Part shown: positions 1-18,182 of the stretch, in pieces
How positions within the stretch are numbered: position 1 is the stretch's first letter
Layout of the letters: each line of letters opens with the position of its first letter
Assembly (NCBI GenBank): GCA_036272735.1
Contig: DATAYF010000474.1
Location: forward strand, 1-18,798
Direction of reading: 5' to 3'
DNA length: 18,798 bases
Origin: Ktedonobacteraceae bacterium
Lineage (GTDB): Bacteria > Chloroflexota > Ktedonobacteria > Ktedonobacterales > Ktedonobacteraceae
Notes under the pieces: model-generated
Database searches by the model: none
Seen by the model: the letters and a program-made list of their open reading frames with translations, nothing else
What the model was told of the DNA's origin: nothing
Position numbers and translations under genes: made by a program

Positions 1-1
1 C

Positions 2-1322: not shown

Positions 1323-1676
1323 ACTAGGACCTCCTCGTGATATGTTGGTAATCCTCCGGGTCCATATCTAGCAGGTTCACCAGTCGTCCCCTTACCAGTG
1401 TGGGATTGTCTAATCTGGACGAGCACTGTATGCGAGACCAAGATTGGATACCGAAGGAAAGCATACACTATCTTTTAGTGATATGCAAGTGGTTTTAGGG
1501 CAAAGTACCATTATAATAAATATCTTTATGTATTTTTTATATGCGGGGCATTTCCCAGTCTAGATTGACCTGTCGGCCTGGCTTGCTTGACGCTTATGAG
1601 ACAATGAAACCGAGCCATCCGAGTCCGACATGTGCACGTATCATCTATACGCGAAGAACGTTAAACAGAGAAGTCT

Positions 1677-2855
1677 ATGCCACCATTGACCTTTACAATA
1701 CAAGCCGAGTGCCCCGATTCGTGGGCACGCGCTGGCACCATTGAAACTCCGCATGGTTCTATTCCCACCCCAATTTTTATGCCCGTAGGTACGCAGGCCA
1801 CCGTGAAAAGCGTCGCACCCGAAGAGTTGCGAGCGGCGGGCGCGAAAATCATCCTCGCCAACACCTACCATTTGATGCTGCGTCCTGGCTCCGAACTGAT
1901 CGATAGCTTCGGCGGTCTGCATTCCTTTATGCACTGGGATGGGCCGATTTTGACCGATAGCGGCGGCTTCCAGGTCTGGAGCCTGGGCCATCTGCGCAAG
2001 CTGAGTGAAGAGGGGGCCGTCTTTAGATCGCACCTCGATGGCTCTTCACATACTCTCACCCCCGAACGCGTGATGCAGATCGAGGCCGAGATTGGCGCGG
2101 ATATCATTCTACCACTCGACATCTGTGCACCCTATTCCTCTTCTCCCCAACAGGCGTTGCAGGCTATGGAACGCACGCATCGCTGGGAGGAACGCGCTCT
2201 CGAAGCCAAAGAGCGCTACCGGCCTGAGCAGGCGCTTTTCGGCATCGTGCAGGGAGCCTTTGAATCAGCATTGCGTCGCCAGAGTGCGCGTTTCATCGGC
2301 AACTTGCCGTTCCCTGGCTTATCTATTGGGGGACTGTCGGTTGGTGAACCTAAGGCGCAGATGTGGGAAATGTTGGAGCAGGTGACGCCTGAACTGCCAC
2401 GCGATAAGCCGCGCCACTTGCTGGGCGTCGGTTCGCCCGAAGACCTGGTGGTGGGTGTTGGCCTGGGCATGGATATGTTCGATTGCGTGCTGCCGACACG
2501 CGTGGCGCGCCACGGCGGACTTTTTACCAGTGATGGTCGCGTCAGTATCAAGAAGGCGCGTTTCCGCACGCAGCGCGGACCCATCGAGGAGGATTGCGAC
2601 TGCTACACGTGCCAGAACTACGACGCGGCCTACGTGCACCATCTGGCGCGCAGCGAGGAGCAGCTTTACTACCGCCTGGGCAGCATCCACAATATTCGTT
2701 TTATGTTGCGCCTGGCAGACCAGTTGCGTGTGGCTATTTGTGCTGGACATTACCAGGCTTTCCGCGACGAATTTCTGGCGCGCTACGTACCAGCTTCGGA
2801 ACAGGTACGCGAGTCGCAGCGGGAAAAATGGCTAGCAGCAACCAGGACACGGTAG
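1677..2855 (+). CDS. tgt: Queuine tRNA-ribosyltransferase
   Basis: 392 aa. The N-terminus ...TPIFMPVGTQATVKSV... aligns to the E. coli Tgt motif ETPCFMPVGTYGTVKG. A Zn-site CDCYTCQNY...H is present. LTDSGGFQV and the LGVG catalytic-region motifs are also present. Confidence 0.93.
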   Translation: MPPLTFTIQAECPDSWARAGTIETPHGSIPTPIFMPVGTQATVKSVAPEELRAAGAKIILANTYHLMLRPGSELIDSFGGLHSFMHWDGPILTDSGGFQVWSLGHLRKLSEEGAVFRSHLDGSSHTLTPERVMQIEAEIGADIILPLDICAPYSSSPQQALQAMERTHRWEERALEAKERYRPEQALFGIVQGAFESALRRQSARFIGNLPFPGLSIGGLSVGEPKAQMWEMLEQVTPELPRDKPRHLLGVGSPEDLVVGVGLGMDMFDCVLPTRVARHGGLFTSDGRVSIKKARFRTQRGPIEEDCDCYTCQNYDAAYVHHLARSEEQLYYRLGSIHNIRFMLRLADQLRVAICAGHYQAFRDEFLARYVPASEQVRESQREKWLAATRTR

Positions 2856-2901
2856 TTTGTAGGAACACCAATAGACATACATAATCGAGTAGAATAAATA
2901 C

Positions 2902-3732
2902 ATGGACACATTAACATTACCCTATCGATTTATCTACACAGGCGAGCAGGATGCGGCCCTCAATATGGCTATCGACGAAGCTATTTTGCTGCATCACATC
3001 CAGGGGAAGGTTGGACCGACGCTGCGCGTGTTTCGTTGGAAGCAACCGGCCATCTCACTCGGTCGTTTTCAGGATGTGGAGCGCGAGATTGCCAGCGACG
3101 TATGTGAGCAGAAGGGCGTTATGCTGGTGCGGCGTCCCACGGGCGGGCGGGCGGTCTACCATCGCGACGAGTTCACCTATAGTATTGTGTTGGGCAAGCG
3201 CGATGGCGCGCCTTTGGGCGTGGTCGCGGCGTATGCTTATCTCGCGCAAGGACTGGTTGCGGCGCTACAGCGTTTAGGCGTGCAGGCGGAACTGAGCGAG
3301 GGACGCGTGAGCAAGCAACCCTCGGCGGCCTGCTTTGCCTCTTCGACACAGGCGGATCTGACCAGCGGCGGCTTCAAACTGGTGGGGAGTGCGCAACGCT
3401 GGCAGGATGAATCGCTGGTGCAACAGGGCTCGCTACCGCTGGATGATCGTGCGCCGGAGTTCTACGACATGCTGTGTTTCTCAAGCGAGGAAGCACGGCA
3501 GGAGGCATTGGCACACTATCGCGAGCAGACAACGCCACTGCACGAATTCGCACCGACGGCCTCGTGGGATGAGGTTGCGCAGGCGTTTCGGCAGGGCTTT
3601 GGTGATGCCCTGGGCGCGCAATTTGCCGCGCAAGAACTCAGCACATCCGAGTGGGACCTGGCCCGCCAGCTTGTCGAGGAAAAATATCACACCCTGGCAT
3701 GGCGGCAGGAGCGCGTCAGGCTGATCAAGTGA
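2902..3732 (+). CDS. Lipoate-protein ligase / octanoyltransferase family protein (BPL/LPL catalytic domain; LplA/LipM-like)
   Basis: 276 aa. Motifs ...RRPTGGRAVYHRDEFTYSIV... and ...SACF...GGFKLVGSAQRWQDESLVQQGSLPLD... are characteristic of the LplA/LipB-family catalytic domain. It sits 46 nt downstream of tgt with no intervening terminator. Confidence 0.8.
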   Translation: MDTLTLPYRFIYTGEQDAALNMAIDEAILLHHIQGKVGPTLRVFRWKQPAISLGRFQDVEREIASDVCEQKGVMLVRRPTGGRAVYHRDEFTYSIVLGKRDGAPLGVVAAYAYLAQGLVAALQRLGVQAELSEGRVSKQPSAACFASSTQADLTSGGFKLVGSAQRWQDESLVQQGSLPLDDRAPEFYDMLCFSSEEARQEALAHYREQTTPLHEFAPTASWDEVAQAFRQGFGDALGAQFAAQELSTSEWDLARQLVEEKYHTLAWRQERVRLIK

Positions 3733-3748
3733 GCCAGGACGACCAGCC

Positions 3749-3785
3749 GCGAGGGACGGTTCCCTTTGCGGGGGTCATCCCTCGC
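3749..3785 (+). terminator. GC-rich hairpin immediately downstream of the lipoate ligase stop. Possible terminator or insulator; it lacks a T-run.
   Basis: GCGAGGGA (3749-3756) pairs with TCCCTCGC (3778-3785), a perfect 8-bp stem. The loop contains CCC...GGG. It is followed by AGGTTGTCTCCC, not T-rich. Confidence 0.3.
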
Positions 3786-3803
3786 AGGTTGTCTCCCACA
3801 ACA

Positions 3804-3832
3804 TTGCACCAATTTTACAGGTGCGGTACAAT
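3804..3832 (+). promoter_or_regulatory. Sigma70-type promoter for the GlcG-like operon
   Basis: TTGCAC (3804-3809), a 17-nt spacer, then TACAAT (3827-3832). This predicts a leader of roughly 180 nt before the GTG start at 4024. Confidence 0.55.
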
Positions 3833-4023
3833 GTGCGCAATACAGTGAGGTTCCGCTACAAAGCAACAGGTATTATCATCCGATGCCCGGCGTGCATTCA
3901 TCTGAACGGAAAAACATATTAGCGGACACCAATTGGCTGTGATCTGGGGCCTGACGAGAGGCAGAGTTTTATTCCTACCACCACTATGTTTGTTTTTTAG
4001 ACAAAAGGAAGGTAGTTTTCTGG

Positions 4024-4698
4024 GTGAGCATATCGATTGATATGGCGCGTCGGATTGTCGAAGCGTGTAAGCAGCGCGCCCGCGATTTTCGCAGTCCGGT
4101 GAGCATTGCCGTAGTTGACGCCGGAGGGCACCTGGTCCTCTTTGAGCGTATGATGGCACCGTATGGTTGGATCACGAGCGATATTAGTATCGCCAAGGCC
4201 GCAACGGCCGTGATGTTCAACCAATCCACCGATGCAGTCGCCCAATGGGGGGCGAGTATCCCTGGCTTTGCATCGAGCCTGTCATCAATGACCAATGGCA
4301 AATTTGTCATGGCGGCTGGCGGTTGGCCTGTTCGGGTTGGTGGGGTAACGATTGGTGGCATCGGCATCAGCGGTGGCAATGCGCCGGGACGCGATGATGA
4401 AATTGCGCGCGCAGGCCTGGCCGCAATCGATGCTGCGCCTGCAACGCCGGTCCCGCCTACACATCAGCAGGCGTATACCGGAGCGTTGACGGCTCAGCCA
4501 GTCGCGTCGTATCCGCCTTATCCGCAGCCCTACCAACAACCCTACGCCGCGCCACAAACGCCACGACCAAAAGAAGAAGCCCCACGACCAGGCTATAGCG
4601 GAGCACCCTATACCAGAGAGCTTCTTCCCGGCCAGGATCACGCTAATAACGATGGTTCCTTACCGCCCCCCACGGAACATTCAGGAGATCAATCATGA
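4024..4698 (+). CDS. GlcG/HbpS-like (DUF336) putative heme/corrinoid-binding protein with a C-terminal Pro/Gln/Tyr-rich low-complexity tail
   Basis: GTG start 11 nt after AAGGAAGG. The first ~140 aa (...VSIAVVDAGGHLVLFERM...SIAKAATAVMFN...GGVTIGGIGISGG...) match the GlcG/HbpS fold signature. The tail YPPYPQPYQQPYAAPQTPRPKEE... is low complexity. Confidence 0.7.
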   Translation: MSISIDMARRIVEACKQRARDFRSPVSIAVVDAGGHLVLFERMMAPYGWITSDISIAKAATAVMFNQSTDAVAQWGASIPGFASSLSSMTNGKFVMAAGGWPVRVGGVTIGGIGISGGNAPGRDDEIARAGLAAIDAAPATPVPPTHQQAYTGALTAQPVASYPPYPQPYQQPYAAPQTPRPKEEAPRPGYSGAPYTRELLPGQDHANNDGSLPPPTEHSGDQS

Positions 4699-5468
4699 GC
4701 CAGGAACAAAGAGAAATTCGTAGACGAGCAAGACGTACAGCTAACGCCCAGCGTAACCGACCAACGCTCGTCACCGCCAAAGATAGCGAGCAGCAAACGT
4801 CGGCCTTCGAGTCCTACGAAACCACTACGGCAACCGTCGATCAGGAGCCAGAACAGCCTATAGAGGTAACAGAGGCCAAAGAGAAGCCGAAAGTTCGTCG
4901 TGGCTTCTTCTTGACCACTGGGAAGAAGGATGCAGCAGCAGGCGAGAAGGACGAGGTTGCGCAGGAGCGACTGGCCCGTGCGACGCGCGGCAAAAGTGAG
5001 CTGGAAGCTAAACAGGAGTCAGTCGCCAAAAAGCCAGCGGCGGCCCGTACGCCCACCAAAGGTGGATTTAAGACCCGCTACATCGTCGGCATGGCGCTCT
5101 ACCTGCTGTGTGCCAACTTTGTCGGCTCCTTCGAGGTACAGGGTCTGCGTTCGGCTGGCCTGGACAGGGTGTTGACCACATTCAACCTCTTCGGTGGCAA
5201 GATGGTTGTTAGCACATCGACGATAGCATTTATTGCTACGCTGGTCATCCTCCTGATCTTGTTGGCGAAGTTCGACCTGATCCCCAGCAGCCTCGGTATG
5301 GGCATGAATACAGCGCGGCCCGTGAGCAAGACTGGTAGCAGTGAGGCAACGCCCGGAGTGCCAGCGCCAAAGTTTACCCAGCCAGCGGTGCGCCAGGGCG
5401 TGGCAGGTGAACACGACGATCTCTATCAAGAGTATCGCTCGAATCAACGCCGCAGCAAGAAAAAATAA
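4695..5468 (+). CDS. Hypothetical protein: highly charged disordered N-terminal region (~135 aa) followed by 1-2 predicted transmembrane helices
   Basis: Start ATG overlaps the upstream stop (ATGA at 4695-4698), indicating translational coupling. A K/R/E-rich N-terminus is followed by hydrophobic segments IVGMALYLLCANFVG and STIAFIATLVILLILLA. No family is recognised. Confidence 0.55.
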   Translation: MSQEQREIRRRARRTANAQRNRPTLVTAKDSEQQTSAFESYETTTATVDQEPEQPIEVTEAKEKPKVRRGFFLTTGKKDAAAGEKDEVAQERLARATRGKSELEAKQESVAKKPAAARTPTKGGFKTRYIVGMALYLLCANFVGSFEVQGLRSAGLDRVLTTFNLFGGKMVVSTSTIAFIATLVILLILLAKFDLIPSSLGMGMNTARPVSKTGSSEATPGVPAPKFTQPAVRQGVAGEHDDLYQEYRSNQRRSKKK

Positions 5469-5478
5469 GAGCACAGCA

Positions 5479-5522
5479 TAAAAGCAGCAGAGCATCATAA
5501 CCAGGATGCCCTGCTGCTTTTG
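5479..5522. terminator. Bidirectional intrinsic terminator between convergent genes
   Basis: AAAGCAGCAG (5481-5490) pairs with CTGCTGCTTT (5511-5520), with inner GCATC/GATGC pairing. The stem is flanked by A-run and T-run sequence on both sides. Confidence 0.65.
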
Positions 5523-5548
5523 TCGTCTTACCCCATCATGCGCACAGC

Positions 5549-8017
5549 TTATTTGAGCCTCTTGAAATCGATAGCGGCTGTTCCCAGGCCGTGAGCAACG
5601 ATGGTCTGTGGATCACCGGGCAGGATATCGAGCATGTTATCGTCCCACGAGACATTCGCGTCCGCGGAGAGTAGGACACCTTTAGCGGGCCGTACAGCCG
5701 AGATAATGATGGTATCATCCTCGCGTGCAAGCTTGATTTCAGGATCGGGTATATCCAGGTACTTGAACGGTTCAGGCCAGAGCGCGGTACGCGCCAGCGC
5801 GGCCCCGTCTTTCAGCAAGCGTGCATTAATAACCAACTGTTTGTTTCGCGTGTATGGCACTGTTCCCAATTCAGTGGCCTGGTTAGGCAACAGGGTTACA
5901 TGGCGTGTTTCTTCCCCGACGCATTCCCCTTGCAACGTCCACGTGCGTAGCTCTACATCGGCTTCCAGTGCCGTTAGCGTGCCGTTGACAGCCCAGAGTT
6001 CAGCCGTATCTTGCTGCCCTTGAACGAGACCGAGCGCGAACGATGCCAGCGCACGTTTGATGGTATAGTACGCGGCCTTGGGGTGCAGCTCATAGTCGAC
6101 ATAGGCCCAGCTTACGACCGGCCAGCAATCGTTAATCTGCCAGACCAAAGCTCCGGCACTGTATTCACGCTGAGGACCAGCCCAACGCCGTCGCCAGCCA
6201 CGAATGCCACTGACCAGCGCCTCGGATTGAACCAATTGCGATTTGTATACGTAGTCTGCCAGATCCACGGGATAGCGCACGTTCTCGATCAGATAATGCC
6301 CAAGACGTTCAGGACCGCCCCCGGCTTTATTATGAAAATCGAGGGTGCTACTTTGCGGATAGCGTTCGCTTTGTGGTGTGAAAGCTTCGATCATTTTCAG
6401 ATCAGGAAAGGCCTGCATGCCAAATTCGCTCACAAAGCGCCCCGGAAATGTATCGTACTGCTGATAGGAGGCCATTTGCCCGTGCCAGACCGACCAGACG
6501 TGCTGGTCACCAAGCGTAAGATCGTTCGCATCGCTGCCAGCGTAGGGACTGCCAGGCCAGTATGGGCGCGTTGGATCGAGTTGTGCGCAGGCCGTGGGTA
6601 AGAGCCGTTCGTAGAGCGTGCGACCAGGGAAGGCTGTCTGTGTGAAATCACCATCAAACGCGGAATCGTAGGTCCCAAGCGAGCCCGCGACGAGATAATC
6701 CTCATTGTTGCCACTCCATACGACCAACGAAGGATGGTGGCGCAGACGACGTATATTGGCTTCAGCCTCAGCCTGAACACTGGCCTGAAACTGCTCGTGC
6801 GCGGGATACATACCGCAGGCAAACATAAAGTCCTGCCACACCAACAAACCAAGCTCATCACAGAGCGCGTAAAAAATGTCCTCTTCATAAATACCACCAC
6901 CCCAGACGCGCAACATGGTCAGGTTGCCCTCGGCCGCGAGTTGTAGCCAGGCCCGGTAGCGCTCAGGTGTGGCCCTGGACAAAAAGGAATCGGCGGGAAT
7001 CCAGTTCGCCCCACCACAGAAAATGGGGGTATTGTTGATCTCGAAGAAGAATGATGTCCCTTCTTGATCGACGAGGGCTTGCTGTACCAGGCGCAAACGG
7101 CGCAGCCCCAGGCGTTCTTCTGCACGATCCAGCGTTTCGCCGTCTATCACCAGCGTTGTTTCTAGACGGTAGAGGGGCTGCTCGCCATAGCCACGCGGCC
7201 ACCAGAGTTCGGGTTGAGCCAGCGTGAACGTATGCTGAAGGATGGGCTCGGTGGCTGGTAAGGTATGCTCGGCTACCCGCTTTCCGGCGGCTGAGAAGAG
7301 GCACAGACGAAGCATAAGATTGGAGGACAGCGTAGCCTGCGCGCTTGCCAGTTGCACCTGCACGGGGAGCGCCGCGCTGCTGAGATCCTCGCTGACCTCT
7401 ACCGGACAGTGCACATCAGCGATACGGGCTGTAAAGGTTTCCAGGCGTACAGAGCGCCACAGACCGGCGGTTATAAAAGTCGGCCCCCAGTCCCACCCAT
7501 AGTGATACTGAGCCTTGCGTACATACAGGCGACTCGCATCGCCATTCCAGGCTGCCAGTGCTCCATACTGGGTTTCGAGCTCTTTGCCACGGCGCATGGC
7601 CGATTCAAACAAGATACGTAGCTCATTCTGGCCGGGCTGTAACAGGGAGGCAACGCGCACGCGATAGGGTACGAACATATTGTCACTGCACAAAATCTGC
7701 ATGCCATTGAGCCAGACGGTGGCGAAAGTATCCAGGCCATCGAAACAAAGCTCGGTTGTTTCATCTCGTGCGAAATCTGCGGGCAAGCTAAACTGGCAGC
7801 GGTACAACCAATCGGCCTCACCGATCCATTGCAGTTCCTTTTCGTTCTGACCGTAGAAGGGGTCGGCGATGCGACCGGCAGCCAGCAGATCCATATGAAT
7901 ACTACCGGGAACAGTCGCCGGAAGCCAATCGCCAGCGGAAGCGAAGGCATCCTCTAACGTTTGTGTTGCGGACCGCTGTTTGCATTGCCACTGTTGAGAA
8001 AGATGCAAGTGTTGCAT
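5549..8017 (-). CDS. Glycoside hydrolase family 2 beta-mannosidase
   Basis: 822 aa. The N-terminal ...WLPATVPGSIHMDLLAAGRIADPFYGQNE... and internal ...WSGNNED..., ...NEFP.../...VSEFGMQAFP... regions are typical of GH2 beta-mannosidase (ManB/CsxA-like) sugar-binding and TIM-barrel domains. Confidence 0.85.
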   Translation of the reverse strand: MQHLHLSQQWQCKQRSATQTLEDAFASAGDWLPATVPGSIHMDLLAAGRIADPFYGQNEKELQWIGEADWLYRCQFSLPADFARDETTELCFDGLDTFATVWLNGMQILCSDNMFVPYRVRVASLLQPGQNELRILFESAMRRGKELETQYGALAAWNGDASRLYVRKAQYHYGWDWGPTFITAGLWRSVRLETFTARIADVHCPVEVSEDLSSAALPVQVQLASAQATLSSNLMLRLCLFSAAGKRVAEHTLPATEPILQHTFTLAQPELWWPRGYGEQPLYRLETTLVIDGETLDRAEERLGLRRLRLVQQALVDQEGTSFFFEINNTPIFCGGANWIPADSFLSRATPERYRAWLQLAAEGNLTMLRVWGGGIYEEDIFYALCDELGLLVWQDFMFACGMYPAHEQFQASVQAEAEANIRRLRHHPSLVVWSGNNEDYLVAGSLGTYDSAFDGDFTQTAFPGRTLYERLLPTACAQLDPTRPYWPGSPYAGSDANDLTLGDQHVWSVWHGQMASYQQYDTFPGRFVSEFGMQAFPDLKMIEAFTPQSERYPQSSTLDFHNKAGGGPERLGHYLIENVRYPVDLADYVYKSQLVQSEALVSGIRGWRRRWAGPQREYSAGALVWQINDCWPVVSWAYVDYELHPKAAYYTIKRALASFALGLVQGQQDTAELWAVNGTLTALEADVELRTWTLQGECVGEETRHVTLLPNQATELGTVPYTRNKQLVINARLLKDGAALARTALWPEPFKYLDIPDPEIKLAREDDTIIISAVRPAKGVLLSADANVSWDDNMLDILPGDPQTIVAHGLGTAAIDFKRLK

Positions 8018-8194
8018 AACAGACTAATTTTGCTCTCTTTCGTTCATGAATTTTGTTAATGCGATGGGCACGTTTCTCCAAGCAGGGTCCAGGGGCGGTA
8101 GCCCCTGGCGGGGTGTGGGGTGTCCCCACCGGCTCTTTCTCCTTGCCGCCGAAGGTGGCGAAACGAACGTGCTATCAGCATAGCAGTATCGCAA

Positions 8195-8208
8195 CCATTG
8201 CGCAATGG
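8195..8208. promoter_or_regulatory. Perfect 14-bp palindrome CCATTGCGCAATGG. Candidate transcription-factor operator in the divergent mannosidase/DAHP-synthase intergenic region.
   Basis: Exact dyad symmetry with no spacer, about 180 bp upstream of the mannosidase start and about 135 bp upstream of the DAHP synthase promoter -35 element. Confidence 0.35.
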
Positions 8209-8285
8209 GAATTGTAGAGGATGCATGTAACACATCAACGTTTGGCAGCAAATACTATTTTGCGCCTCGTGTATAGTAAATAAGG

Positions 8286-8308
8286 GTTTGGAATTCGTAT
8301 TTCCAAAC
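8286..8308. promoter_or_regulatory. Inverted repeat GTTTGGAA-n7-TTCCAAAC. Candidate operator or activator site just upstream of the DAHP synthase promoter.
   Basis: Perfect 8-bp arms with a 7-bp spacer, centred about 36 bp upstream of the -35 hexamer at 8333. Confidence 0.35.
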
Positions 8309-8332
8309 GTCCTAAACGCGTAGCTTCCCCTC

Positions 8333-8361
8333 TTGACAGATAGGGACAAGCTACTTATAAT
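8333..8361 (+). promoter_or_regulatory. Perfect-consensus sigma70-type promoter (TTGACA-17-TATAAT) driving the leader and DAHP synthase
   Basis: TTGACA at 8333-8338, exactly 17 nt of spacer, then TATAAT at 8356-8361. Confidence 0.7.
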
Positions 8362-8404
8362 TTGTAATAGTAAGCAAGAAATTTTTCGAAGAGAATACAC
8401 AACA

Positions 8405-8476
8405 ATGCACAGCACAAAGTATAACCAACAATTAAATCACTTTTACTTTTATTATTGGTTTAGCCCTCCAGCATGA
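8405..8476 (+). CDS. Candidate aromatic-amino-acid leader peptide (23 aa): MHSTKYNQQLNHFYFYYWFSPPA
   Basis: ATG at 8405 lies 10 nt after the purine-rich GAAGAGAA. Codons 13-19 (8441-8461) are TTT TAC TTT TAT TAT TGG TTT, which is seven consecutive Phe/Tyr/Trp codons. Stop TGA at 8474-8476 lies inside the 5' arm of the downstream hairpin. The ORF is too short to appear in the ORF track. Confidence 0.6.
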   Translation: MHSTKYNQQLNHFYFYYWFSPPA

Positions 8477-8556
8477 TGGTGGGCCCTTTGGGCTGTGCAA
8501 AAAAAGACCACCAGCGTGCTGGAGAAGCAGAGGAAAAAAACCTCTGCTTTTTTGTT
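8466..8556 (+). terminator. Leader RNA structure: a long imperfect hairpin (8466-8524) followed immediately by an intrinsic terminator (8525-8556), about 40 nt upstream of the DAHP synthase start. This is a candidate attenuator.
   Basis: CTCCAGCA (8466-8473) pairs with TGCTGGAG (8517-8524), and TGGTGG (8477-8482) pairs with CCACCA (8508-8513). Then AAGCAGAGG (8525-8533), loop AAAAAAA, and CCTCTGCTT (8541-8549) are followed by a T-run TTTTTT (8548-8553). No + strand gene lies upstream that this terminator could serve. Confidence 0.6.
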
Positions 8557-8593
8557 TCCCAAAAATAAAGCAAGAAATTGAGAGGACCAGGCC

Positions 8594-9667
8594 ATGATTA
8601 TTACGATTAGTAAGACTGCTACCAACGATGAACGTGCTCAACTGATGATGTTATTATCGCGCATAATGGGTCGGCAAAGACCGATGGCGACCCTGCATAT
8701 GCGCGAACACGACGTTATTGCCCTCGACCTGCCCCTGGATATCGCCACCGAAACCATCCTCAAGCAACAAAAAGCCGTCGACACCATCCACACCCTCAAA
8801 ACTCCCTACCAACTCGTGAGCCGCGCTTTTCAGCAAGAAGATACCAGCATCCTTATCGGCGCAACCAGCGATAGTGCGCCTGTTACTCTTGGTGGATCGT
8901 CCGCATTTCCTGTCATCATGGCTGGTCCCTGTGCGGTCGAACATCGTGAGCAGTTGTTGGAGGCGGCTCGCGGCGTGAAGGCGGCTGGCGCACATATGTT
9001 ACGCGGAGGAGCGTACAAGCCACGCACGTCGCCCTACCAGTTCCAGGGTCTGGGGATCGAGGGTCTGCGTCTATTGGCGGAAGCGCGCGCCGAAACAGGG
9101 TTGCCGATTATTACCGAAGTCATGGAGCCAGCGCTGGTGGAAACGGTGGCTGAATACGCCGATGTGTTGCAGATTGGGGCACGCAATGTGCAGAATTTCC
9201 CGCTCTTGCAGGCGGCCGGACGAAACAGCAAGCGGCTTCCGGTGGTATTGAAACGTGGTTGGTCCTCAACTATCGAAGAATGGCTGTCGGCAGCCGAGTA
9301 CATCGTCGCGGCCGGAAATCCCAACGTTATTTTGTGCGAGCGTGGCATTCGTAGCTATGATCCACAGACGCGCAACGTCCTCGACCTCACCTGTGTTCCC
9401 TTGCTGCACGAGTTGACCCATTTGCCAGTCATTGTGGACCCCAGCCATGCCACCGGCAAGCGTTCGTTGGTGCCGCCCGTGTCGCGTGCAAGCATCGCCG
9501 CTGGTGCCCAGGGACTGATTATCGAAGTGCATCCCGATCCCGCCCACGCGCTCTGTGACGGCAAGCAATCGATCACGCCAGCAGAACTCCAAAAAGTTGT
9601 ACGCGAGGCCAATATGCTCACAGAAATGATCAAAGGGGATATACCACAGTTGACGCCAGTGATGTAG
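8594..9667 (+). CDS. 3-deoxy-7-phosphoheptulonate (DAHP) synthase, type I-beta, with an N-terminal ferredoxin-like/ACT-type regulatory domain (Thermotoga maritima-like architecture)
   Basis: 357 aa. The catalytic core (...IMAGPCAVEHREQLLE...LRGGAYKPRTSPYQFQGLG...IITEVM...IGARNVQNF...LKRG...ILCERGIR...VIVDPSH...IIEVHPDPAHALCDGKQS...) aligns closely with T. maritima DAHPS/KDO8PS-family enzymes. An ~90-aa N-terminal extension precedes the barrel. Confidence 0.9.
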   Translation: MIITISKTATNDERAQLMMLLSRIMGRQRPMATLHMREHDVIALDLPLDIATETILKQQKAVDTIHTLKTPYQLVSRAFQQEDTSILIGATSDSAPVTLGGSSAFPVIMAGPCAVEHREQLLEAARGVKAAGAHMLRGGAYKPRTSPYQFQGLGIEGLRLLAEARAETGLPIITEVMEPALVETVAEYADVLQIGARNVQNFPLLQAAGRNSKRLPVVLKRGWSSTIEEWLSAAEYIVAAGNPNVILCERGIRSYDPQTRNVLDLTCVPLLHELTHLPVIVDPSHATGKRSLVPPVSRASIAAGAQGLIIEVHPDPAHALCDGKQSITPAELQKVVREANMLTEMIKGDIPQLTPVM

Positions 9668-9711
9668 TACGACCCAACCTGGTCTGGTACAGTTCATTTT
9701 TTGCGCTAGAG

Positions 9712-9752
9712 GAACCGAGACGGAGACAAACTTCGTCTCGGTTCTTTATTTT
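9712..9752 (+). terminator. Intrinsic terminator of the DAHP synthase gene
   Basis: GAACCGAGACG (9712-9722) pairs with CGTCTCGGTTC (9734-9744), a perfect 11-bp stem. It is followed by TTTATTTT. Confidence 0.8.
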
Positions 9753-9867
9753 GTATGGAAAAGCACGTCAAGTATGATGCATATAGATGAACCACAAAGT
9801 ATAAAAAATGCCGCATTTGCATGACTTTTACATTGCCCTGAGTCCTCCTCCCACGCCTTTCTATCAC

Positions 9868-9908
9868 CCCAAATGGTAGCGCATAACCCCCGAATGGTAG
9901 TGTATAAT
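9868..9908 (+). promoter_or_regulatory. Tandem direct repeats (CCCaAATGGTAGcGcATAA / CCCgAATGGTAGtGtATAA, 21-bp period) overlapping a TATAAT -10 element (9903-9908) upstream of the secreted-protein gene
   Basis: Two ~19-bp near-identical copies start at ~9868 and ~9889. The second copy ends in TATAAT, about 125 nt upstream of the ATG at 10035. Confidence 0.4.
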
Positions 9909-10034
9909 TATGATCGGTACCCATCTATTCATATTCTTCTCGCACGAAGCGAGATCCTCCAAGGTTTTGTCTAGCACTAGCAAGGCGAAGCCAGTCTCTT
10001 TGTATGCGATGTATGTGAAAGGAAGGTCACTCGT

Positions 10035-11747
10035 ATGCACTTCTCCCTTCCCGCAATGGGAAAACACCTCTGCAAAGTCGCTGGGATGGCGGTGTTTCTC
10101 AGCCTCTTGCTTACAGGAAGTTTCTTTCTACACGTGCCTATCTCTCAGGCCACGGGCCTGGCGCAACAGAGCCATCAGCAGGCCACCATTTATACCAGTG
10201 CCACCAAAGGTACGCTTGCCCCATTTGGTACTGCCGATCCTCGCCATCCTCCGGCCTCAGCAGCCGTGACCGGGGTTCCAAAGATCAAACATATTTCGAA
10301 GGGGGTGCGCCCCATTCCCAGCATCGCTCGGGCGTCCACCGCGCCTGGGCAGGCGCGTGCTTCCGGGCTTGCGCTGCACACTGGCCGGATCTTACAGAAT
10401 TTCAATGGAGTTAGCAGCCTGGATAGCGAGGTCACGAACTTTAATGCTGAATTCGAGCCGCCAGACCAGGGGCTCTGCGTTGGCAATGGCTTCGTCGTGG
10501 AAGCGGTGAACTCAGCTTTCACGATCTATCGGACCAATGGTACAGCGGTCTTGGGTCCGCTGAACGTCAATGTGCTTTTTGACGAAGGGCTCAAAGAGTT
10601 TACCAGCGATCCTCGCTGCTACTTCGATAAGTCAACCAACACCTGGGTCGCAATCATTCTCTACATTCGTAGTGATAATGCGGAGGCGCGCACCGACATT
10701 GCGGTCAATCACAGTGGTGATCCAACAACCCCCTGGACGGTCTATCATCTGGAGGCAACCGACGATGGGAGCGGTGGGATGCCAAACCACGCTGGATGTC
10801 CCTGTCTGGGAGATCAGCCGCTGCTGGGCCTTGACCAGGAGAACGTCTATATCAGCACTAACGAGTTTCCCATTGTCGCGAATGGCTTCAATGGGGCGCA
10901 GATCTATGCCATCTCGAAGCAGCAGCTTTTTGGTCTTTCGTCCCAGGTTCATTTTGTGCATTTTGACAACTTGAATATCGGGGGCGCAGTGGCTGCCTCA
11001 GTTCAGCCAGCAACTGCAAACGACAAAGCTGACGCGGGCTTCTTCATGAATTCGCTGGATCCCTTTGGTACCTCTGATAATCGTATCGGCATCTGGGCGC
11101 TAACCAACCGTCACGAGGTCAGCAAAGGAGGGGTTCCAATACTCTCCAGTATTGTCGTTACCTCGGAACTCTATGGCGTTCCGCCCCCAGCCATCCAGAA
11201 GGGAAACACCCGCAAGCTGGACGCAGGGGATGACCGCATGCAGCAGGTCCAATTTATCAATGGCGATCTCTGGGGCGCGTTGGATACAGTCATCACAATC
11301 CCGAATGATAGCGCGTCGCGGGCTGGCATTGCCTGGTTCCAGGTGCGTCCATCCATTCGCCATGAGCTGATCAGTGGACCGGAAATTGAGTATCAGGGTT
11401 ACGTTGCTTCGTCGGGGAACTATGTGCTCTACCCGGCGATCCAGGCGGGGCCGGATCATAGCGCGGCAATCGTCTTCACGTTCAGCGGAGCTAACAACTT
11501 CCCCAGCCCTGCCTACGCGGTAATGCAAGGTGGGATGCATGCTTTTGGCGCGATTACGCTAGCTGCTGATGGCACTGGGCCGTATGTGAATGGCACCCGT
11601 TGGGGCGACTATTCATACGCGACGCTTGATCCTGACCATAACCATTTCTGGCTTGCAACCGAGTATATTCCCCCGGTGAGCAGCCAGACAACGGATGGCG
11701 CTGCCAACTGGGGAACACGCGTCTTCGAGGTCGATGGGCACTCCTAG
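10035..11747 (+). CDS. Secreted hypothetical protein (570 aa) with an N-terminal signal peptide. No family recognised.
   Basis: GGAAGG RBS 8 nt upstream of the ATG. The N-terminus has a K-containing n-region followed by the hydrophobic stretch MAVFLSLLLTGSFFLHVPISQA. The rest shows no recognisable catalytic motifs. Alternative start at M17 (10083). Confidence 0.6.
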   Translation: MHFSLPAMGKHLCKVAGMAVFLSLLLTGSFFLHVPISQATGLAQQSHQQATIYTSATKGTLAPFGTADPRHPPASAAVTGVPKIKHISKGVRPIPSIARASTAPGQARASGLALHTGRILQNFNGVSSLDSEVTNFNAEFEPPDQGLCVGNGFVVEAVNSAFTIYRTNGTAVLGPLNVNVLFDEGLKEFTSDPRCYFDKSTNTWVAIILYIRSDNAEARTDIAVNHSGDPTTPWTVYHLEATDDGSGGMPNHAGCPCLGDQPLLGLDQENVYISTNEFPIVANGFNGAQIYAISKQQLFGLSSQVHFVHFDNLNIGGAVAASVQPATANDKADAGFFMNSLDPFGTSDNRIGIWALTNRHEVSKGGVPILSSIVVTSELYGVPPPAIQKGNTRKLDAGDDRMQQVQFINGDLWGALDTVITIPNDSASRAGIAWFQVRPSIRHELISGPEIEYQGYVASSGNYVLYPAIQAGPDHSAAIVFTFSGANNFPSPAYAVMQGGMHAFGAITLAADGTGPYVNGTRWGDYSYATLDPDHNHFWLATEYIPPVSSQTTDGAANWGTRVFEVDGHS

Positions 11748-11754
11748 TTCTAAC

Positions 11755-11801
11755 GCTTCAGCCGTGAGACCTCTCACGGCTGAAGCATCCCTTTCTTCTC
11801 C
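11755..11801 (+). terminator. Intrinsic terminator of the secreted-protein gene
   Basis: GCTTCAGCCGTGAGA (11755-11769) pairs with TCTCACGGCTGAAGC (11772-11786), a near-perfect 13-15 bp stem. It is followed by the pyrimidine/T-rich ATCCCTTTCTTCTCC. Confidence 0.65.
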
Positions 11802-12141
11802 GGAGCTTTTGAACCGCCTCCCCATAAGAATCTCTAGCAAAGTATGACTGAAAATGAATTTAAATGGTAAAATCTACCTTAGCAACAAAAATGTTGTATA
11901 GCTGTAATAGAAAGAAGTAAAAAAAGCACAGAACACGATGCTTTCTTTTAGCCCAAGAATAGAGCCTCACACCTGCCTCACCTTTTAGTCCTCAGTGGGT
12001 AGCGCCACGGTTCCTGCGGCAATCTGGACTACGCCTATCGACTCACCTATGGTTGTATGATATACTTGCCGTAATGTGGCAAGAGAAATCAGTATCGTCA
12101 GTGGGCAGAGCCCAAGCAAAGGCTTTGAGGTAGGTAACGCT

Positions 12142-12714
12142 ATGCCAGTAAGAATTATAATTGCAGATGACGAAGCCATACAGCGTATGGACTTAAAAGA
12201 TGTACTCATCAAACAGGGATATCTTGTGGTTGGAGAGGCTGGCGATGGCGTGAGTGCCATCAACCTGGCGCGTGAACTTCGACCAGACCTGGTCATTATG
12301 GACATTCGTATGCCCGATATGGACGGCATTGCCGCCGCCGAAACGTTGACAGAAGAAAAGCTTGCACCAGTGTTGTTGCTCACAGCCTTCGGGGATCAGC
12401 CATTAGTCGAACGTGCCAAAGAGGCCGGGGTCGTCAATTACATCGTGAAACCGCTGCGTGAGAGTGAAGTCACTCCCGCCATCGAAGTGGCCCTGGCGCG
12501 CTACAATGAGTTTCGTGGCCTTGAAGAGAAAAATCGTTCACTCACCGATCAGCTTGAGACGCGTAAGATTGTTGAGCGGGCGAAGGGTCTTATGATGCAA
12601 AAGCAAGGCTTATCCGAACAAGAGGCGTTCCGCAAAATCCAGAAGGCCAGCATGAACAATCGCAAATCTATGCGCGAAGTAGCAGAAGCTATCTTATTAA
12701 CCGACGAAATGTAG
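12142..12714 (+). CDS. Response regulator with a C-terminal ANTAR RNA-binding domain (PdtaR/AmiR/NasT-like)
   Basis: Preferred start is the ATG at 12142 with the GAGGTAGG RBS. The ORF-track start at 12076 is less likely. The receiver domain (RIIIADDEAIQRMDLKDVL...PDLVIMDIRMPDMDGI...LLLTAF...) and ANTAR motif (...LETRKIVERAKGLMMQKQGLSEQEAFRKIQKASMNNRKSMREVAEAIL) are close to mycobacterial PdtaR. Confidence 0.85.
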   Translation: MPVRIIIADDEAIQRMDLKDVLIKQGYLVVGEAGDGVSAINLARELRPDLVIMDIRMPDMDGIAAAETLTEEKLAPVLLLTAFGDQPLVERAKEAGVVNYIVKPLRESEVTPAIEVALARYNEFRGLEEKNRSLTDQLETRKIVERAKGLMMQKQGLSEQEAFRKIQKASMNNRKSMREVAEAILLTDEM

Positions 12715-12726
12715 GTGAAAACTGAC

Positions 12727-12757
12727 AGGATGCGGCAACGAGGCTTCATCCTTTTTT
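12727..12757 (+). terminator. Weak hairpin plus T-run between the ANTAR regulator gene and ricT. It could be a terminator or an ANTAR-controlled attenuator.
   Basis: AGGATG (12727-12732) pairs with CATCCT (12747-12752), separated by a 14-nt loop, then TTTTT (12753-12757). A TATAAT at 12766-12771 follows. Confidence 0.35.
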
Positions 12758-12792
12758 CATCTCAGTATAATGCCTAATAGATAGAGAAGTAT

Positions 12793-13806
12793 ATGTCACT
12801 GGCGACAAAGGATCTTGAGAAAACTATTCATATCGTCGGCATTCGTTTTCGTCCCGCCGGGCGCATCTACTACTTTGATCCTGTAGGGCAGATGTTTAAT
12901 AACGGCCAATATGTAATTGTGGAGACGGTGCGCGGCGTGGAGGCAGGGCGGGTGGTGATCGCGGCAAAACGGGTTGCGGAAAGCGAGCTGAGCGATCCCC
13001 TGAAGCCAGTTCTGCGCCTGGCGAGCGAAGACGAGCTGCGCACTATGCTCTCTTTTAAGAGCAAGGAAAAAGACGCGTTGGTCCGGTGCCATGAACGTAT
13101 TCAGTATCACCAGCTTCCGATGAAGCTGGTTGAGACCGAATATACGTTCGATGGAAGTCGTCTGACGTTCTATTTTACCGCGGAGGAACGGGTAGATTTT
13201 CGCGCCCTCGTGCGTGATCTTGCCGCGACCTTTCGTACTCGTATCGAATTGCGGCAGATAGGCGCTCGCGACCAGGCGAAGCTACAGGGCGGTATTGGCC
13301 CTTGTGGGAAGACGCTGTGTTGTAGCTCCTGGATCACCGACTTTGGTATCGTCTCTATAAAAATGGCGAAGGAGCAGGGACTGCCTCTCAATCCAACCAA
13401 GATTTCCGGTGTGTGTGGTCGCTTGATGTGCTGCCTCTCTTATGAGAATGAGAACTATATTCAGGCGAAGCGGCAAATGCCACAAATCGGCGCGTTCCTG
13501 AATACGCCCAGCGGATCAGGTAAAGTGGTGGCGGTGAACGTCCCCAAGAATTCGGTTGATGTCATATTGGAAAGTGGCGTCACCATCCAGGTGCCAGTCG
13601 AGGAAGAGCAGAACACGCAGTCCAGCAGTAGTTGTAATAGTTGTGGAAGCGGCACGAATTGTAGCTGCTCGAATGGTGGCCCCTGCACCTGTGGCGCGAA
13701 AAAAAGCCCCTCCACCACGAGCGCTCCGGCCAGCATCCCCAAAGGTGGTTGCTGTGTTTCGTGTAGTCTTAATAAGCAAAATCAGGCACCAAAAGCATCA
13801 AAATAA
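12793..13806 (+). CDS. ricT: PSP1-domain protein RicT (YaaT-like; regulatory iron-sulfur complex subunit / 'stage 0 sporulation protein') with an extra ~60-aa Cys-rich C-terminal tail
   Basis: There is block-wise near-identity to B. subtilis YaaT: VGIRF..AG.IYYFDP, VIVETVRGVE.G.VVIA, FYFTAEERVDFR.LV.DLA.TFRTRIELRQIG.RD.AK..GGIGPCG..LCCS, VSIKMAK.Q.L.LNPTKISG.CGRLMCCL.YEN. The C-terminal SSSSCNSCGSGTNCSCSNGGPCTCGAKK...GGCCVSCS is absent from YaaT. Confidence 0.9.
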   Translation: MSLATKDLEKTIHIVGIRFRPAGRIYYFDPVGQMFNNGQYVIVETVRGVEAGRVVIAAKRVAESELSDPLKPVLRLASEDELRTMLSFKSKEKDALVRCHERIQYHQLPMKLVETEYTFDGSRLTFYFTAEERVDFRALVRDLAATFRTRIELRQIGARDQAKLQGGIGPCGKTLCCSSWITDFGIVSIKMAKEQGLPLNPTKISGVCGRLMCCLSYENENYIQAKRQMPQIGAFLNTPSGSGKVVAVNVPKNSVDVILESGVTIQVPVEEEQNTQSSSSCNSCGSGTNCSCSNGGPCTCGAKKSPSTTSAPASIPKGGCCVSCSLNKQNQAPKASK

Positions 13807-13843
13807 CATTGTGAAGCTGAGATGAGAGGCAGGTGTGTGACGT

Positions 13844-15370
13844 ATGTCTTCAGATGGGAAGGACCCTGGTGCAATCTGGCAAGGACCCTCTAAACCGGAC
13901 TGGGGCCAGTCCGAACAACAAGCACAGATGGACCAGCAACTTGAATTCGCAGATCTCTCGCAGCAGCAGGCAGACGCTCCTCATGTTTTCTCGCTTATCG
14001 ACGACGATCTGGCGGACGAGGCGCTACCGCCGGACGCCAATTGGCAGGAGCGGCTCAAGCGCTACGCACGCCAGGCTATGCCGGTGTGGCTGCCCTTACT
14101 CCTCGGTGTACTGACCAGCATTTTTGTCATCCCTTTCATTATCCAGGGCCGCGCCAGCATCTCACTTGATAACCTCTGGTTGATCGTCACCGTCATTGTG
14201 GTAGTGACGCTGTCACAAATGGCCGCGCTGTTCTACACGAGCACCGCTACGAGCCAGGATGACGCCGGTACTGGCAATATTTTGCGAATCCCGGCCATCG
14301 TCGGGGGCATCCTCCTCTTTGTGCTCAGCGGCGTGTTCGCTCTTGCAGGCTCCACGGTAGGCTTGATTACCCTCGTTATCGTGATCGCACTCTTCGTCGT
14401 CTTATTCCGCTTATATGTTCACCCCGTGCCAGAAGGTTTCGTCGATATCGTTTACACCTTAGGCAAGTATAGTCGCACGCTCTACGCGGGGCCAAATGTG
14501 CTGCTGCCCTGGGAAAAGGTGGCGCATCATCTCAAAGTCAGCTCGATCCAGTGGTTGTGCCCCCTGCAACGGGTACAGCTTTCGCGTGCAGAGGATGTCC
14601 TGTTGCGTGCGACCATCTCGTATCGCCTGTTGCCGAGGGACGCCTACCTGGCGGTAACGCGAGTTGATCGCTGGGAAGAGGGCCTGCGCGAACTATTTAT
14701 TACCTGCGTGCAGACGATTGCGACGGCGTTTGCCCCTGAAGATTTTATCTCCTGGCCTGAAGGCTTACACACGCCACCTTCGGTCAATGAGAACGTTGAT
14801 AGTGTTGTGCGCCGAGATCGTATCAATAACTACTTGTATAACCAGATGAGCGATAAAGCGGCGCTATGGGGCATTATCGTGCAAGGGGTGGGTGTGCGCG
14901 ACATCATGCTCGCGCCGCACGACGCAGTTATTGATGCTGAAACGCTCTTTGCGTCTCCGGATCCCCCGGCTGCTCCACAACCACAGTCGCAAATGGCAAA
15001 CACGCGCCCACCGGCAGAACCTGCCGCCACTACTCTCCCGGAGAAAAACCTTAGTGGAGCGGGAGCGCCAAAGACGAATAACGTGCCCAAGGCCTCGGAG
15101 AACGCCATGGTGGTTGAAAGCTCCGCGCGCGCTATGCCGCAACAGCCAGGAATTGTGAATGAAGAGATTTTGTCAAAAGCCTACAAAGAGGTGCAGAATG
15201 GCAGAATTACAGACCCCCAAACTATCCGCGAGATAGCCGCCAGGTTCCAGGCCATCGCCGACGATCCCCAGGCTAGCCAAAAGGTCAACTTCGATGCGGA
15301 GCGAGGCGCGGCAAACCTGCAAGAACAAGCACGTAAGTACGAGGAGTCCGCAAGCAAGCAGCGTAAATAA
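13844..15370 (+). CDS. Membrane protein with an acidic N-terminal region, four predicted TM helices, a divergent SPFH/band-7 (stomatin/HflK/C/flotillin-like) domain, and a long P/Q/A-rich disordered C-terminus
   Basis: TM segments lie at about aa 70-190. The segment VPEGFVDIVYTLGKYSRTLYAGPNVLLPWEKV...SIQWLCPLQRVQLSRAEDVLLRATISYRLLPRDAYLAV matches the SPFH core pattern VPxG...GK..RTL.PG...P....V...Q.L.....TKD...V.VDAV..YRV.DP. It lies 37 nt after ricT. Confidence 0.65.
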   Translation: MSSDGKDPGAIWQGPSKPDWGQSEQQAQMDQQLEFADLSQQQADAPHVFSLIDDDLADEALPPDANWQERLKRYARQAMPVWLPLLLGVLTSIFVIPFIIQGRASISLDNLWLIVTVIVVVTLSQMAALFYTSTATSQDDAGTGNILRIPAIVGGILLFVLSGVFALAGSTVGLITLVIVIALFVVLFRLYVHPVPEGFVDIVYTLGKYSRTLYAGPNVLLPWEKVAHHLKVSSIQWLCPLQRVQLSRAEDVLLRATISYRLLPRDAYLAVTRVDRWEEGLRELFITCVQTIATAFAPEDFISWPEGLHTPPSVNENVDSVVRRDRINNYLYNQMSDKAALWGIIVQGVGVRDIMLAPHDAVIDAETLFASPDPPAAPQPQSQMANTRPPAEPAATTLPEKNLSGAGAPKTNNVPKASENAMVVESSARAMPQQPGIVNEEILSKAYKEVQNGRITDPQTIREIAARFQAIADDPQASQKVNFDAERGAANLQEQARKYEESASKQRK

Positions 15371-15615
15371 TGAGAGTGGTATCCGTAAGTACTAGGTTAG
15401 GATGCAGAGACGTTGAGCGTGGTTAAGGTGCTAACAGAGCCATAAGACATTTAGGCTAAATTCCCCCCTTGCTAAGCCCTTGAGAAGCAACATGGTATAC
15501 AATAGCATGTGTAGAAAGCAATCGATGTGACGATATACATTTCTAGGCAACGACCGTCGCATGAGGGGATTGCAACCTCCCAAGATCACGGAGGTTTCCA
15601 TGAGAGAGGGCGACC

Positions 15616-18181: not shown

Positions 18182-18182
18182 T

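Follow-up and report, generated by a model that had tools for sequence, protein, structure and literature searches.

How is the gene for 3-deoxy-7-phosphoheptulonate (DAHP) synthase regulated in the Ktedonobacteraceae bacterium whose contig DATAYF010000474.1 was analyzed over positions 1-18,798 (hereafter, the window)? The gene is preceded by a short open reading frame (ORF) rich in aromatic codons, by a long hairpin (P1) and by an intrinsic terminator (T). A first, sequence-only reading had taken this arrangement for a leader-peptide attenuator of the classical trpL/pheL type in what it guessed, correctly, to be a genome of Chloroflexota. We found that the proposal of a leader-peptide attenuator of an aromatic-pathway gene is supported by the conservation of the leader, by compensatory change in P1 and by the constant presence of T; the likeness to the classical layout did not survive comparison. 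Judging from the sequences, the element is almost certainly a ribosome-sensing switch on aromatic supply placed before DAHP synthase, and we put at roughly 0.7 the probability that it is a ribosome-mediated attenuator in which the integrity of P1 would act as the switch.

All parts of the element lie on the plus strand. The promoter (8333-8361) combines the -35 box TTGACA (8333-8338) and the -10 box TATAAT (8356-8361) separated by a spacer of 17 nucleotides (nt). As had been claimed, it is a perfect one: it scores 12 out of 12 against the consensus and is the sole site with this score among the four promoter-like sites observed in the 7500-9500 region, where 1.6 such sites were expected from shuffled sequences. 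The transcript is predicted to start near 8368. The leader ORF (ORF1, 8405-8476) has 23 codons, encodes MHSTKYNQQLNHFYFYYWFSPPA and ends with the UGA stop codon (8474-8476), which sits within the 5' arm of P1, as the sequence-only reading had noted. Seven codons in a row (8441-8461) specify F-Y-F-Y-Y-W-F, i.e., only phenylalanine, tyrosine and tryptophan. No other run of six or more such codons is present in the six frames of the window, and a run of seven or more appeared in none of 300 block shuffles.

The minimum free energy (MFE) fold of positions 8368-8600 (z = -3.3) contains P1 (8466-8524) with 10+6+4 base pairs together with the stem of T. The 5' arm of P1 spans 8466-8482, the 3' arm spans 8508-8524, and an apical mini-hairpin occupies 8483-8493. 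The base of P1 is situated 5 nt 3' of the last aromatic codon, and the linker between P1 and T has 0 nt, so the long imperfect hairpin described earlier does adjoin the terminator. T itself (8525-8557) is predicted to be strong, as had been said, with a GC-rich stem of 9 bp (A8525-G8533 / C8541-U8549), an A7 loop (8534-8540) and the U tract UUUUUUGUUU (8548-8557). The stem holds the 7-bp core GCAGAGG/CCUCUGC and, in the MFE fold, is followed by UUUUGUUU.

The gene downstream (8594-9667), which would be the regulated one, codes for a DAHP synthase of type I-beta, as seen from the matches to Pfam PF00793, NCBIfam TIGR01361 and PRK08673; the protein has an N-terminal extension of ~95 aa. The nearest gene 5' of the leader, a GH2 family gene (5549-8017), is on the minus strand; therefore, T serves no plus-strand gene upstream, which had been a correct remark of the sequence-only reading. 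An attenuator in the broad sense has a short ORF rich in end-product codons between promoter and gene as well as a predicted intrinsic terminator between the leader ORF and the structural gene, and both are found at this locus.

To collect relatives, a profile of 36 close DAHP synthases was run against one genome per GTDB species and the best 80 loci were kept; the anatomy of the family was described for 69 non-redundant members. We found the aromatic leader, P1 and T together in 45 genome loci and in ~31 metagenome loci (~75 in total), with the aromatic run present in every member. Conservation of the mini-ORF and its run had been set beforehand as the test on which the attenuator proposal could fail, and the proposal passed it clearly. 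In Ktedonobacteria (L001-L015: Dictyobacter, Ktedonobacter racemifer, Thermosporothrix hazakensis and metagenome-assembled genomes, MAGs) the leader ends with F-Y-Y-W-F-S-P-P-A or a close variant, the exact ending being seen in L001-L013 and in metagenome loci. Some 30 further genome loci with a leader belong to Limnocylindria, Chloroflexia, Thermomicrobiales, other Chloroflexota and one MAG labelled Polarisedimenticolia. The distant leaders have 11 residues of the form M-x-x-x-[FYW]3-x-x-P-A, for example MSHYFYFRCPA and MNAPYWFTPPA, or a longer variant of it.

Over 105 nt, the 18 Ktedonobacteria leaders share 88% nucleotide identity, compared to 66-78% identity of their DAHP synthase proteins. 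Taken as a whole, the conservation data show a genuine element that is strongly selected and tied specifically to aromatic biosynthesis. The linkage extends to other genes of aromatic metabolism. In L171 the element is located on the minus strand ~90 nt 5' of an ORF (230-2059) coding for an aroK-aroB (shikimate kinase / 3-dehydroquinate synthase) fusion. In L175 (1850-2440) a leader with tyrosine codons only (YYYY) precedes a type I chorismate mutase, which is followed by a DAHP synthase-like reading frame; a near-identical leader occurs in L122, whose contig is not long enough to reveal what lies downstream.

The core of T was identical in 45 of 45 leader-bearing genome loci, in the general form GCAGAGG-(5-8 nt)-CCUCUGC-UUUUUUGUUU, one copy per locus and upstream of the gene; with this single occurrence per locus, we rejected the idea that T is a general terminator of these genomes. 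The loop of T varies in length and sequence, while the two pairs below the core covary among AU, GU and GC. A scan of metagenomes for the T motif returned 120 stretches, of which ~31 turned out to be the further members with new leader variants and the remainder ordinary terminators sharing the 7-bp stem. Since the same stem appears in many unrelated metagenomic terminators, its sequence alone is not diagnostic. A simple terminator scanner missed T, probably because G-U and A-U pairs extend the stem into the U run and remove the T tail that the scanner requires.

The lower stem of P1 showed abundant compensatory change: we counted 40 distinct sequences in the family, all of them paired, e.g., CUCCAGCAUG / CAUGCUGGAG, CUCCGACAUG / CAUGUCGGAG, GCCCGGCAUG / CGUGCCGGGC and CGCGGCUUGG / CCAAGCCGCG. 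The mean MFE of the P1 region across the family was -36 kcal/mol. The spacings on both sides of the hairpin were nearly fixed. The base of P1 follows the aromatic run at a distance of 4-6 nt in most members and of 1 nt in the FYFRCPA subgroup (via two extra predicted pairs), and of the 69 members, 29 have no linker nucleotide between P1 and T and 24 have a single one.

A second ORF begins where the first one ends. In the window, the AUG of ORF2 (8473-8568) overlaps the stop codon of ORF1 (GC-AUG-A), and its 31 codons run across the terminator to the UAA at 8566-8568, 25 nt before the AUG of DAHP synthase. The AUGA stop-restart overlap was found in 53 members; in 46 of the 53, ORF2 has 5-8 codons and its stop falls within the apex of P1, at a distance of 26-34 nt from T. 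All three stop codons (UGA, UAG and UAA) are used at this position, and control frames did not show such clustering. In nine members with no early stop, ORF1 runs on and ends 30-33 nt before T; a few members deviate from this rule of a final stop at ~30 nt. We also considered an in-frame fusion of the leader or of an ORF3 to DAHP synthase by stop codon read-through and rejected it, because the frames are inconsistent between members, which marks the apparent fusion as an artefact of open frames in GC-rich DNA.

In Ktedonobacteria there are two more helices. The first, P0, pairs the region of the leader start codon (5' strand, 8406-8419) with the apical part of P1 (3' strand, 8486-8499, CUUUG-G-GCUGUGCA) and is part of the MFE structure of the ribosome-free window RNA: U8406-C8413 pairs with G8492-A8499, and C8415-G8419 with C8486-G8490. 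With an energy of -20.1 kcal/mol, the P0 duplex finds support in 17 of 19 Ktedonobacteria-type leaders. The window itself carries a compensatory change, CUC>CAC / GAG>GUG, that converts AUGCUCAGC / GCUGAGCA into AUGCACAGC / GCUGUGCA, and in L012 the helix is extended by GCACA/UGUGC. In the MFE structure, formation of P0 goes along with a local hairpin, Pa (8463-8484, GCCCUCC / GGUGGGC), which takes up the 5' base of P1 and leaves the 3' arm of P1 free. Both arms of Pa are invariant in Ktedonobacteria, and its likely role, as suggested by folding, would be to sequester the 5' base of P1. P0 has a counterpart in the trp leader, where a helix is likewise known to cover the start of the leader ORF; in the fold of Escherichia coli trpL it is seen as the pairing GGGUAUC/GAUACCC.

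A classical attenuator would have an antiterminator, i.e., a strand that competes for one arm of the terminator. For this element we found none. The 5' arm of T was matched by RNAduplex to all upstream RNA, and the result was compared with shuffled upstream RNA. On average over the 69 members, the best duplex had an energy of -6.7 kcal/mol with a mean z of +0.44, and z fell below -2 in only two members; no strand complementary to either arm of T was found that could serve as an antiterminator in the family. The same procedure was applied to six control leaders, namely E. coli thrL, pheL, leuL, trpL and hisL and the unrelated leader L061. Their best duplexes ranged from -10.9 to -18.7 kcal/mol, and the known antiterminator strand was recovered in thrL, pheL, leuL, trpL and L061; the best duplex of hisL was weaker and not distinguishable from shuffles. 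The sequence-only reading had thus been right not to find a consistent antiterminator pairing by eye, as no antiterminator of the ordinary kind is present. The leader L061 (2166-2330, a deltaproteobacterial MAG), like L078 (~2120-2270, a Bryobacter MAG), is an independent aromatic leader before a type I-beta DAHP synthase; the two leader peptides are MKCSVLQSGLYQDYYWYYYYVTCGGD and MNRYFSYAGYRFWFTNQNARVACAVIR, the terminators differ from T, and L061 has a classical antiterminator-like strand, CGCUCCUGCG.

Two other tests for an antiterminator carried less weight. Masked full-length MFE folding kept T in every ribosome state; however, the terminator of E. coli trpL also persisted in every masked state, so masked folding is uninformative, and for structures that compete with the terminator, as the earlier reading had anticipated, we are left with the RNAduplex result, which revealed none. 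Folding of transcripts truncated after the 5' arm of T failed as well to recover the 2:3 helix of trp and served for description only. A protein with a response-regulator receiver and an ANTAR (RNA-binding antiterminator) domain is encoded 3.5 kb 3' of the attenuator (12076-12714, plus strand). We rejected it as the antiterminator: the loops of T vary in length and sequence, and the leader has no dual-hexaloop motif. Searches against Rfam 15 gave no match at the gathering score in the window (only noise at E-values up to 10 in 8200-8700) and no leader match, including Trp_leader (RF00513), Phe_leader (RF01859) and others, in 16 related loci.

The position of the control codons is the second departure from the textbook. 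The element resembles enterobacterial trpL, pheL, thrL, leuL and hisL in having a promoter, an ORF with end-product codons and an intrinsic terminator before the gene, with the ribosome as the proposed sensor. In the E. coli leaders, however, the control codons are buried within the first helix by 17-53 nt (offset -17 to -53 nt) and the 5' arm of the terminator has a strong alternative partner; neither is the case here, where the base of P1 is situated 1-6 nt 3' of the last aromatic codon. With control codons just outside P1, a stalled ribosome would preserve the helix rather than open it. The claimed match to the trpL/pheL layout fails on both counts, the antiterminator strand being absent and the control codons upstream of the hairpin and not inside it.

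The closest precedent in concept is the aroR-aroF attenuator of Corynebacterium glutamicum, reportedly described by Neshat et al. in 2014; it comes from another phylum and controls another class of DAHP synthase, as C. glutamicum aroF is not of the I-beta type. Two papers (PMC4046766, PMC11802643) describe a leader peptide with Phe-Tyr-Phe ahead of this DAHP synthase gene and report that read-through rises under Phe limitation. As far as these descriptions of the motif and the gene allow a comparison, our element is like aroR in having consecutive aromatic residues before DAHP synthase, the F-Y-F triplet being shared with the 11-residue M-x-x-x-F-Y-F-R-C-P-A relatives and expanded to F-Y-F-Y-Y-W-F in the window. 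Another relevant system is of the pyrBI type, where a ribosome close to RNA polymerase prevents the terminator hairpin from forming, which is steric control with no antiterminator; there, the leader ORF extends across the terminator, and polymerase pausing dependent on uridine triphosphate provides the signal. The window is similar to pyrBI in that ORF2 crosses the terminator and in that steric control is proposed; it differs in that the ORF normally, in the family, ends ~30 nt before T and in that the proposed blocker is a helix held next to T.

The GC-rich relatives resemble yet another group of leaders. Several Ktedonobacteria relatives have TATAAT 50-60 nt 5' of the leader AUG, while in the short-leader GC-rich relatives TTGAC is found 35-43 nt 5' of the AUG and the -10 box 6-13 nt from it, which implies that the transcripts of the latter would be leaderless or nearly so. 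This is the arrangement of actinobacterial leaderless leaders. In Streptomyces lividans, TrpL1, LeuL2 and IlvL are leaderless leaders of 11-18 residues followed by hairpins and a U stretch, and that set lists no aromatic or DAHP synthase case (PMC8079986). The window, with its 5' untranslated region of ~37 nt (8368-8404, counted from the predicted start), is unlike them, and the amino-acid specificity and the sequences differ as well.

From these observations we propose the following course of events, in which transcription of DAHP synthase would be coupled to the supply of charged tRNA-Phe, tRNA-Tyr and tRNA-Trp. Transcription would begin at the consensus promoter, and a ribosome would translate the 23-codon leader. 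If aromatic aminoacyl-tRNAs were scarce, the ribosome would stall within the seven-codon run. The entrance of the mRNA channel of the ribosome lies at +11/+12 from the first nucleotide of the P site, and with the last aromatic codon in the A site, the base of P1 would be found at about the same +11/+12 position. Since P1 starts 5 nt past the last aromatic codon, right at the channel entrance, a stall anywhere in the run would leave P1 intact. With plentiful aromatic aminoacyl-tRNAs, on the other hand, the ribosome would unwind the 5' arm of P1 and reach the UGA; in most relatives it would then restart at the overlapping AUG or continue, and park in the apex of P1 ~30 nt before T. Once P1 is open, its 3' arm would be single-stranded, T would form and transcription would end before the gene. 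In Ktedonobacteria, P0 and Pa would keep P1 from forming on untranslated RNA, so that termination would be the default.

The sign of the regulation, a stall leading to read-through, is inferred: the biology of the pathway and the C. glutamicum precedent demand read-through on starvation, so intact P1 should stand for antitermination and open P1 for termination. P0 and Pa fit this sign, as on untranslated RNA they would free the 3' arm of P1. The idea that we tentatively favour combines two contributions of intact P1. One is steric: a rigid P1 on a linker of 0-1 nt, with the stalled ribosome behind it, would block the lower stem of T in the RNA exit channel of RNA polymerase. The other is that intact P1 would remove the single-stranded purine-rich 5' flank that is able to extend T into the U tract. 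The steric mechanism, taken alone, we regard as less likely than not. In the same tentative spirit we offer the possibility that the element embodies an undescribed logic of attenuation with no antiterminator, in which P1 would be a clamp on T, the ribosome would act as a helicase and then be parked ~30 nt from T via the AUGA restart, and termination would take place only when aromatic aminoacyl-tRNAs are plentiful.

Several observations weigh against the P1-switch reading. The case for ribosome-mediated attenuation here is built on sequence, comparison and folding. No mutually exclusive pairing of P1 and T was found, T being present in every simulated ribosome state, as for E. coli trpL. The steric idea, drawn from general structural knowledge, is weakened by the MFE folds of E. 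coli pheL and hisL, in which a helix is also placed within 2-3 nt of the terminator; closeness of a helix may thus be insufficient to prevent termination. With the 3' arm of P1 free, T gains just -2.4 kcal/mol on average (-3.8 in the window); with so small a gain we rejected the notion that the free arm is required to extend T into the U tract and kept it as a minor contributor. In the window, L005, L092 and L169, the stop codon of the short ORF2 is lost and ORF2 crosses T; an efficient restart would there counteract termination in the amino-acid-replete state. Why the core of T never varies is not explained by the P1-switch model. In the FYFRCPA subgroup, the F-Y-F codons are complementary to the 5' arm of T at 9 of 10 positions, the sole complementary strand there. 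Finally, GC-rich members such as L017, L027 and L183, and also L041, L023 and L176, offer the 3' arm of P1 another strong pairing strand 10-30 nt 3' of the U tract, with energies up to -28.7 kcal/mol, which does not fit the reading; in read-through RNA, T could then become the tip of a far longer helix. Ktedonobacteria, including the window, lack this downstream helix, which was rejected as the core mechanism.

One rival reading is a classical attenuator whose antiterminator is hidden, for example in the form of a P0 pseudoknot, a triplex on the purine-rich stem of T, non-canonical pairs or a slipped CCUCC/GAGG register. Several overlapping pairings would be expected to keep the core of T invariant, and the complementarity of the F-Y-F codons in the FYFRCPA subgroup also speaks for a hidden strand. 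In the PP-type leaders P1 is similar to T at its base: CCUCCAGC, on the 5' side, is like CCUCUGC in the 3' arm of T, and GCUGGAG, on the 3' side, is like GCAGAGG in the 5' arm of T; in L183 and L171 a significant partner for a T arm is present just 5' of P1. Attenuators whose modelling needs triplexes are reported by the Lyubetsky group (PMC4833913). Still, the candidate partners differ from subgroup to subgroup, form weak duplexes (-5 to -8 kcal/mol) and in 67 of the 69 members do not surpass shuffled sequences. The slipped register would cost Ktedonobacteria, by inspection of the sequence, a bulge of 8 nt for the sake of 4 pairs, and the interior of P1 varies too much to be the partner of a T that stays constant. 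As for the F-Y-F strand, it is confined to one subgroup and lies beneath the stalled ribosome, which would mask it, and we rejected it as an antiterminator. All in all, a hidden classical antiterminator appears unlikely to us.

Another alternative is that of reversed polarity, where passing ribosomes would promote expression, for example by translating ORF2 through T or by relaying re-initiation to the DAHP synthase start, or where read-through would be constitutive and mainly translation or stability of the mRNA would be controlled. The ORF2 of the window, which crosses T and ends shortly before the DAHP synthase AUG, speaks for this alternative, and RNA-only folding yields read-through just when the leader is free of ribosomes. 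So do L017, L027 and L183, whose partner of the P1 3' arm past the U tract (-28 kcal/mol) can form in read-through RNA only. But ORF2 ends before T in 46 of the 53 members with the overlap, and an entry enzyme switched off when aromatic tRNAs are uncharged would be biologically perverse and opposite to the C. glutamicum case. The alternative is also at odds with the distance from T to the gene start, which varies from ~35 to >150 nt with no conserved pairing to the Shine-Dalgarno sequence, and with the fact that a terminator with its U tract is the most conserved part of the element. We consider both versions very unlikely in comparison with the P1 switch.

The C-termini of the leader peptides could suggest an arrest-peptide sensor like TnaC. 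The aromatic residues occupy positions 3-9 from the C-terminus, and most leaders end with P-A-UGA, those ending in PA always using UGA as the stop. An aromatic run followed by two residues, Pro-Ala and UGA might let free aromatics block peptide release, upon which P1 would be open, T would form and the gene would be off, a sensible regulatory sign. We see little chance for this sensor. The nucleotides of P-A-stop make up the 5' arm of P1, and changes in them are matched by changes in its 3' arm, as in CCAGCAUG/CAUGCUGG, CCGACAUG/CAUGUCGG (with Thr for Ala) and CCGGCAUG/CGUGCCGG; in L019 these nucleotides are kept but read in another frame, and at least nine leaders, including L014, L015, L054, L058, L089, L157, L173 and L086, extend with unrelated C-termini. 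The C-terminal codons, as their sequences suggest, are constrained as RNA, and a peptide-dependent C-terminus of the TnaC type was not observed. Such a sensor would, moreover, turn the pathway off in severe starvation.

Hardly credible at all is a non-regulatory origin, in which an independent small-protein or small-RNA gene with a strong promoter and a strong terminator of its own would stand upstream of DAHP synthase by chance: terminated attenuator RNAs and leader peptides are able to act in trans in other bacteria, as with rnTrpL/peTrpL (PMC7968998), but the element is linked exclusively to shikimate/aromatic genes in ~75 loci, the 35-45 nt from T to the gene in short-leader members leave no room for another promoter, and conservation of the leader peptide is limited to the aromatic run and to the residues that P1 constrains.

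With the P1-switch attenuator as the preferred reading, the question of novelty has a divided answer. The sequence-only reading had been unaware of any such attenuators described in Chloroflexota, and in full-text literature searches we found no leader-peptide attenuation of aromatic genes in this phylum; on the other hand, a Phe-Tyr-Phe leader before a DAHP synthase gene is already known in C. glutamicum from the two papers named above. The family is thus new and widespread, but in structure it represents a variation on a type of regulator that is known already, with aroR-aroF as the precedent in concept. Leader-peptide attenuation, studied almost entirely in Proteobacteria and Actinobacteria, would be extended to Chloroflexota, where the aromatic entry step and, in some genomes, also aroK-aroB and chorismate mutase would come under control at the RNA level.

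The family also poses a mechanistic puzzle: ~75 members have an invariant terminator and fixed spacings, and yet both textbook structural hallmarks fail. Resolving the mechanism would bring to light either steric control of intrinsic termination or an RNA interaction of a hidden type. The stop-restart second ORF and the invariant core of T are concrete details that can be tested cheaply, and cultured sequenced hosts exist, namely Ktedonobacter racemifer DSM 44963, Thermosporothrix hazakensis and Dictyobacter species. Current pipelines miss members of the family, which merits an entry in annotation resources for RNA and small ORFs.

Several minor features of the locus complete the picture. The 5' untranslated region of the leader folds into a small hairpin (8381-8386 / 8391-8396) and contains a weak purine-rich Shine-Dalgarno sequence, GAAGAGA (8388-8394). 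The Shine-Dalgarno sequence of DAHP synthase is GAGAGG (8581-8586, plus strand), and similar purine-rich boxes are present in the relatives. Further downstream there is an ORF of 570 aa with no Pfam match (10035-11747, plus strand), followed by a perfect inverted repeat CTTCAGCCGTGAGAGGTCTCACGGCTGAAG (11760-11790) that looks like its terminator.

We also observed recurrent neighbours of the element in other genomes. In the short-leader class, genes of tRNA-Ser(GCU) and tRNA-Arg(GCG) are found on the minus strand, divergent from the leader and 100-1500 nt 5' of it (L017, L018, L021, L022, L025, L026, L029, L030, L034, L047 and L056). This synteny includes the Polarisedimenticolia-labelled MAG; L017, cut at the contig end, shows tRNA-Ser alone. 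Near two long-leader members there are an M-box (Mg2+) riboswitch and tRNA-Sec genes (L125, 6626-6795 and 5162-5255; L183, 212-305). An unrelated recurrent element, in which a terminator GCAGAGGAGAAATCCTCTGC has a conserved GGCAAAGTACCTGGGGGAGGGTACAAGCCGG box 5' of it, was seen in many soil metagenome contigs (L087, L109, L111, L117, L121, L124, L130, L138, L162, L167, L186, L194 and L195).

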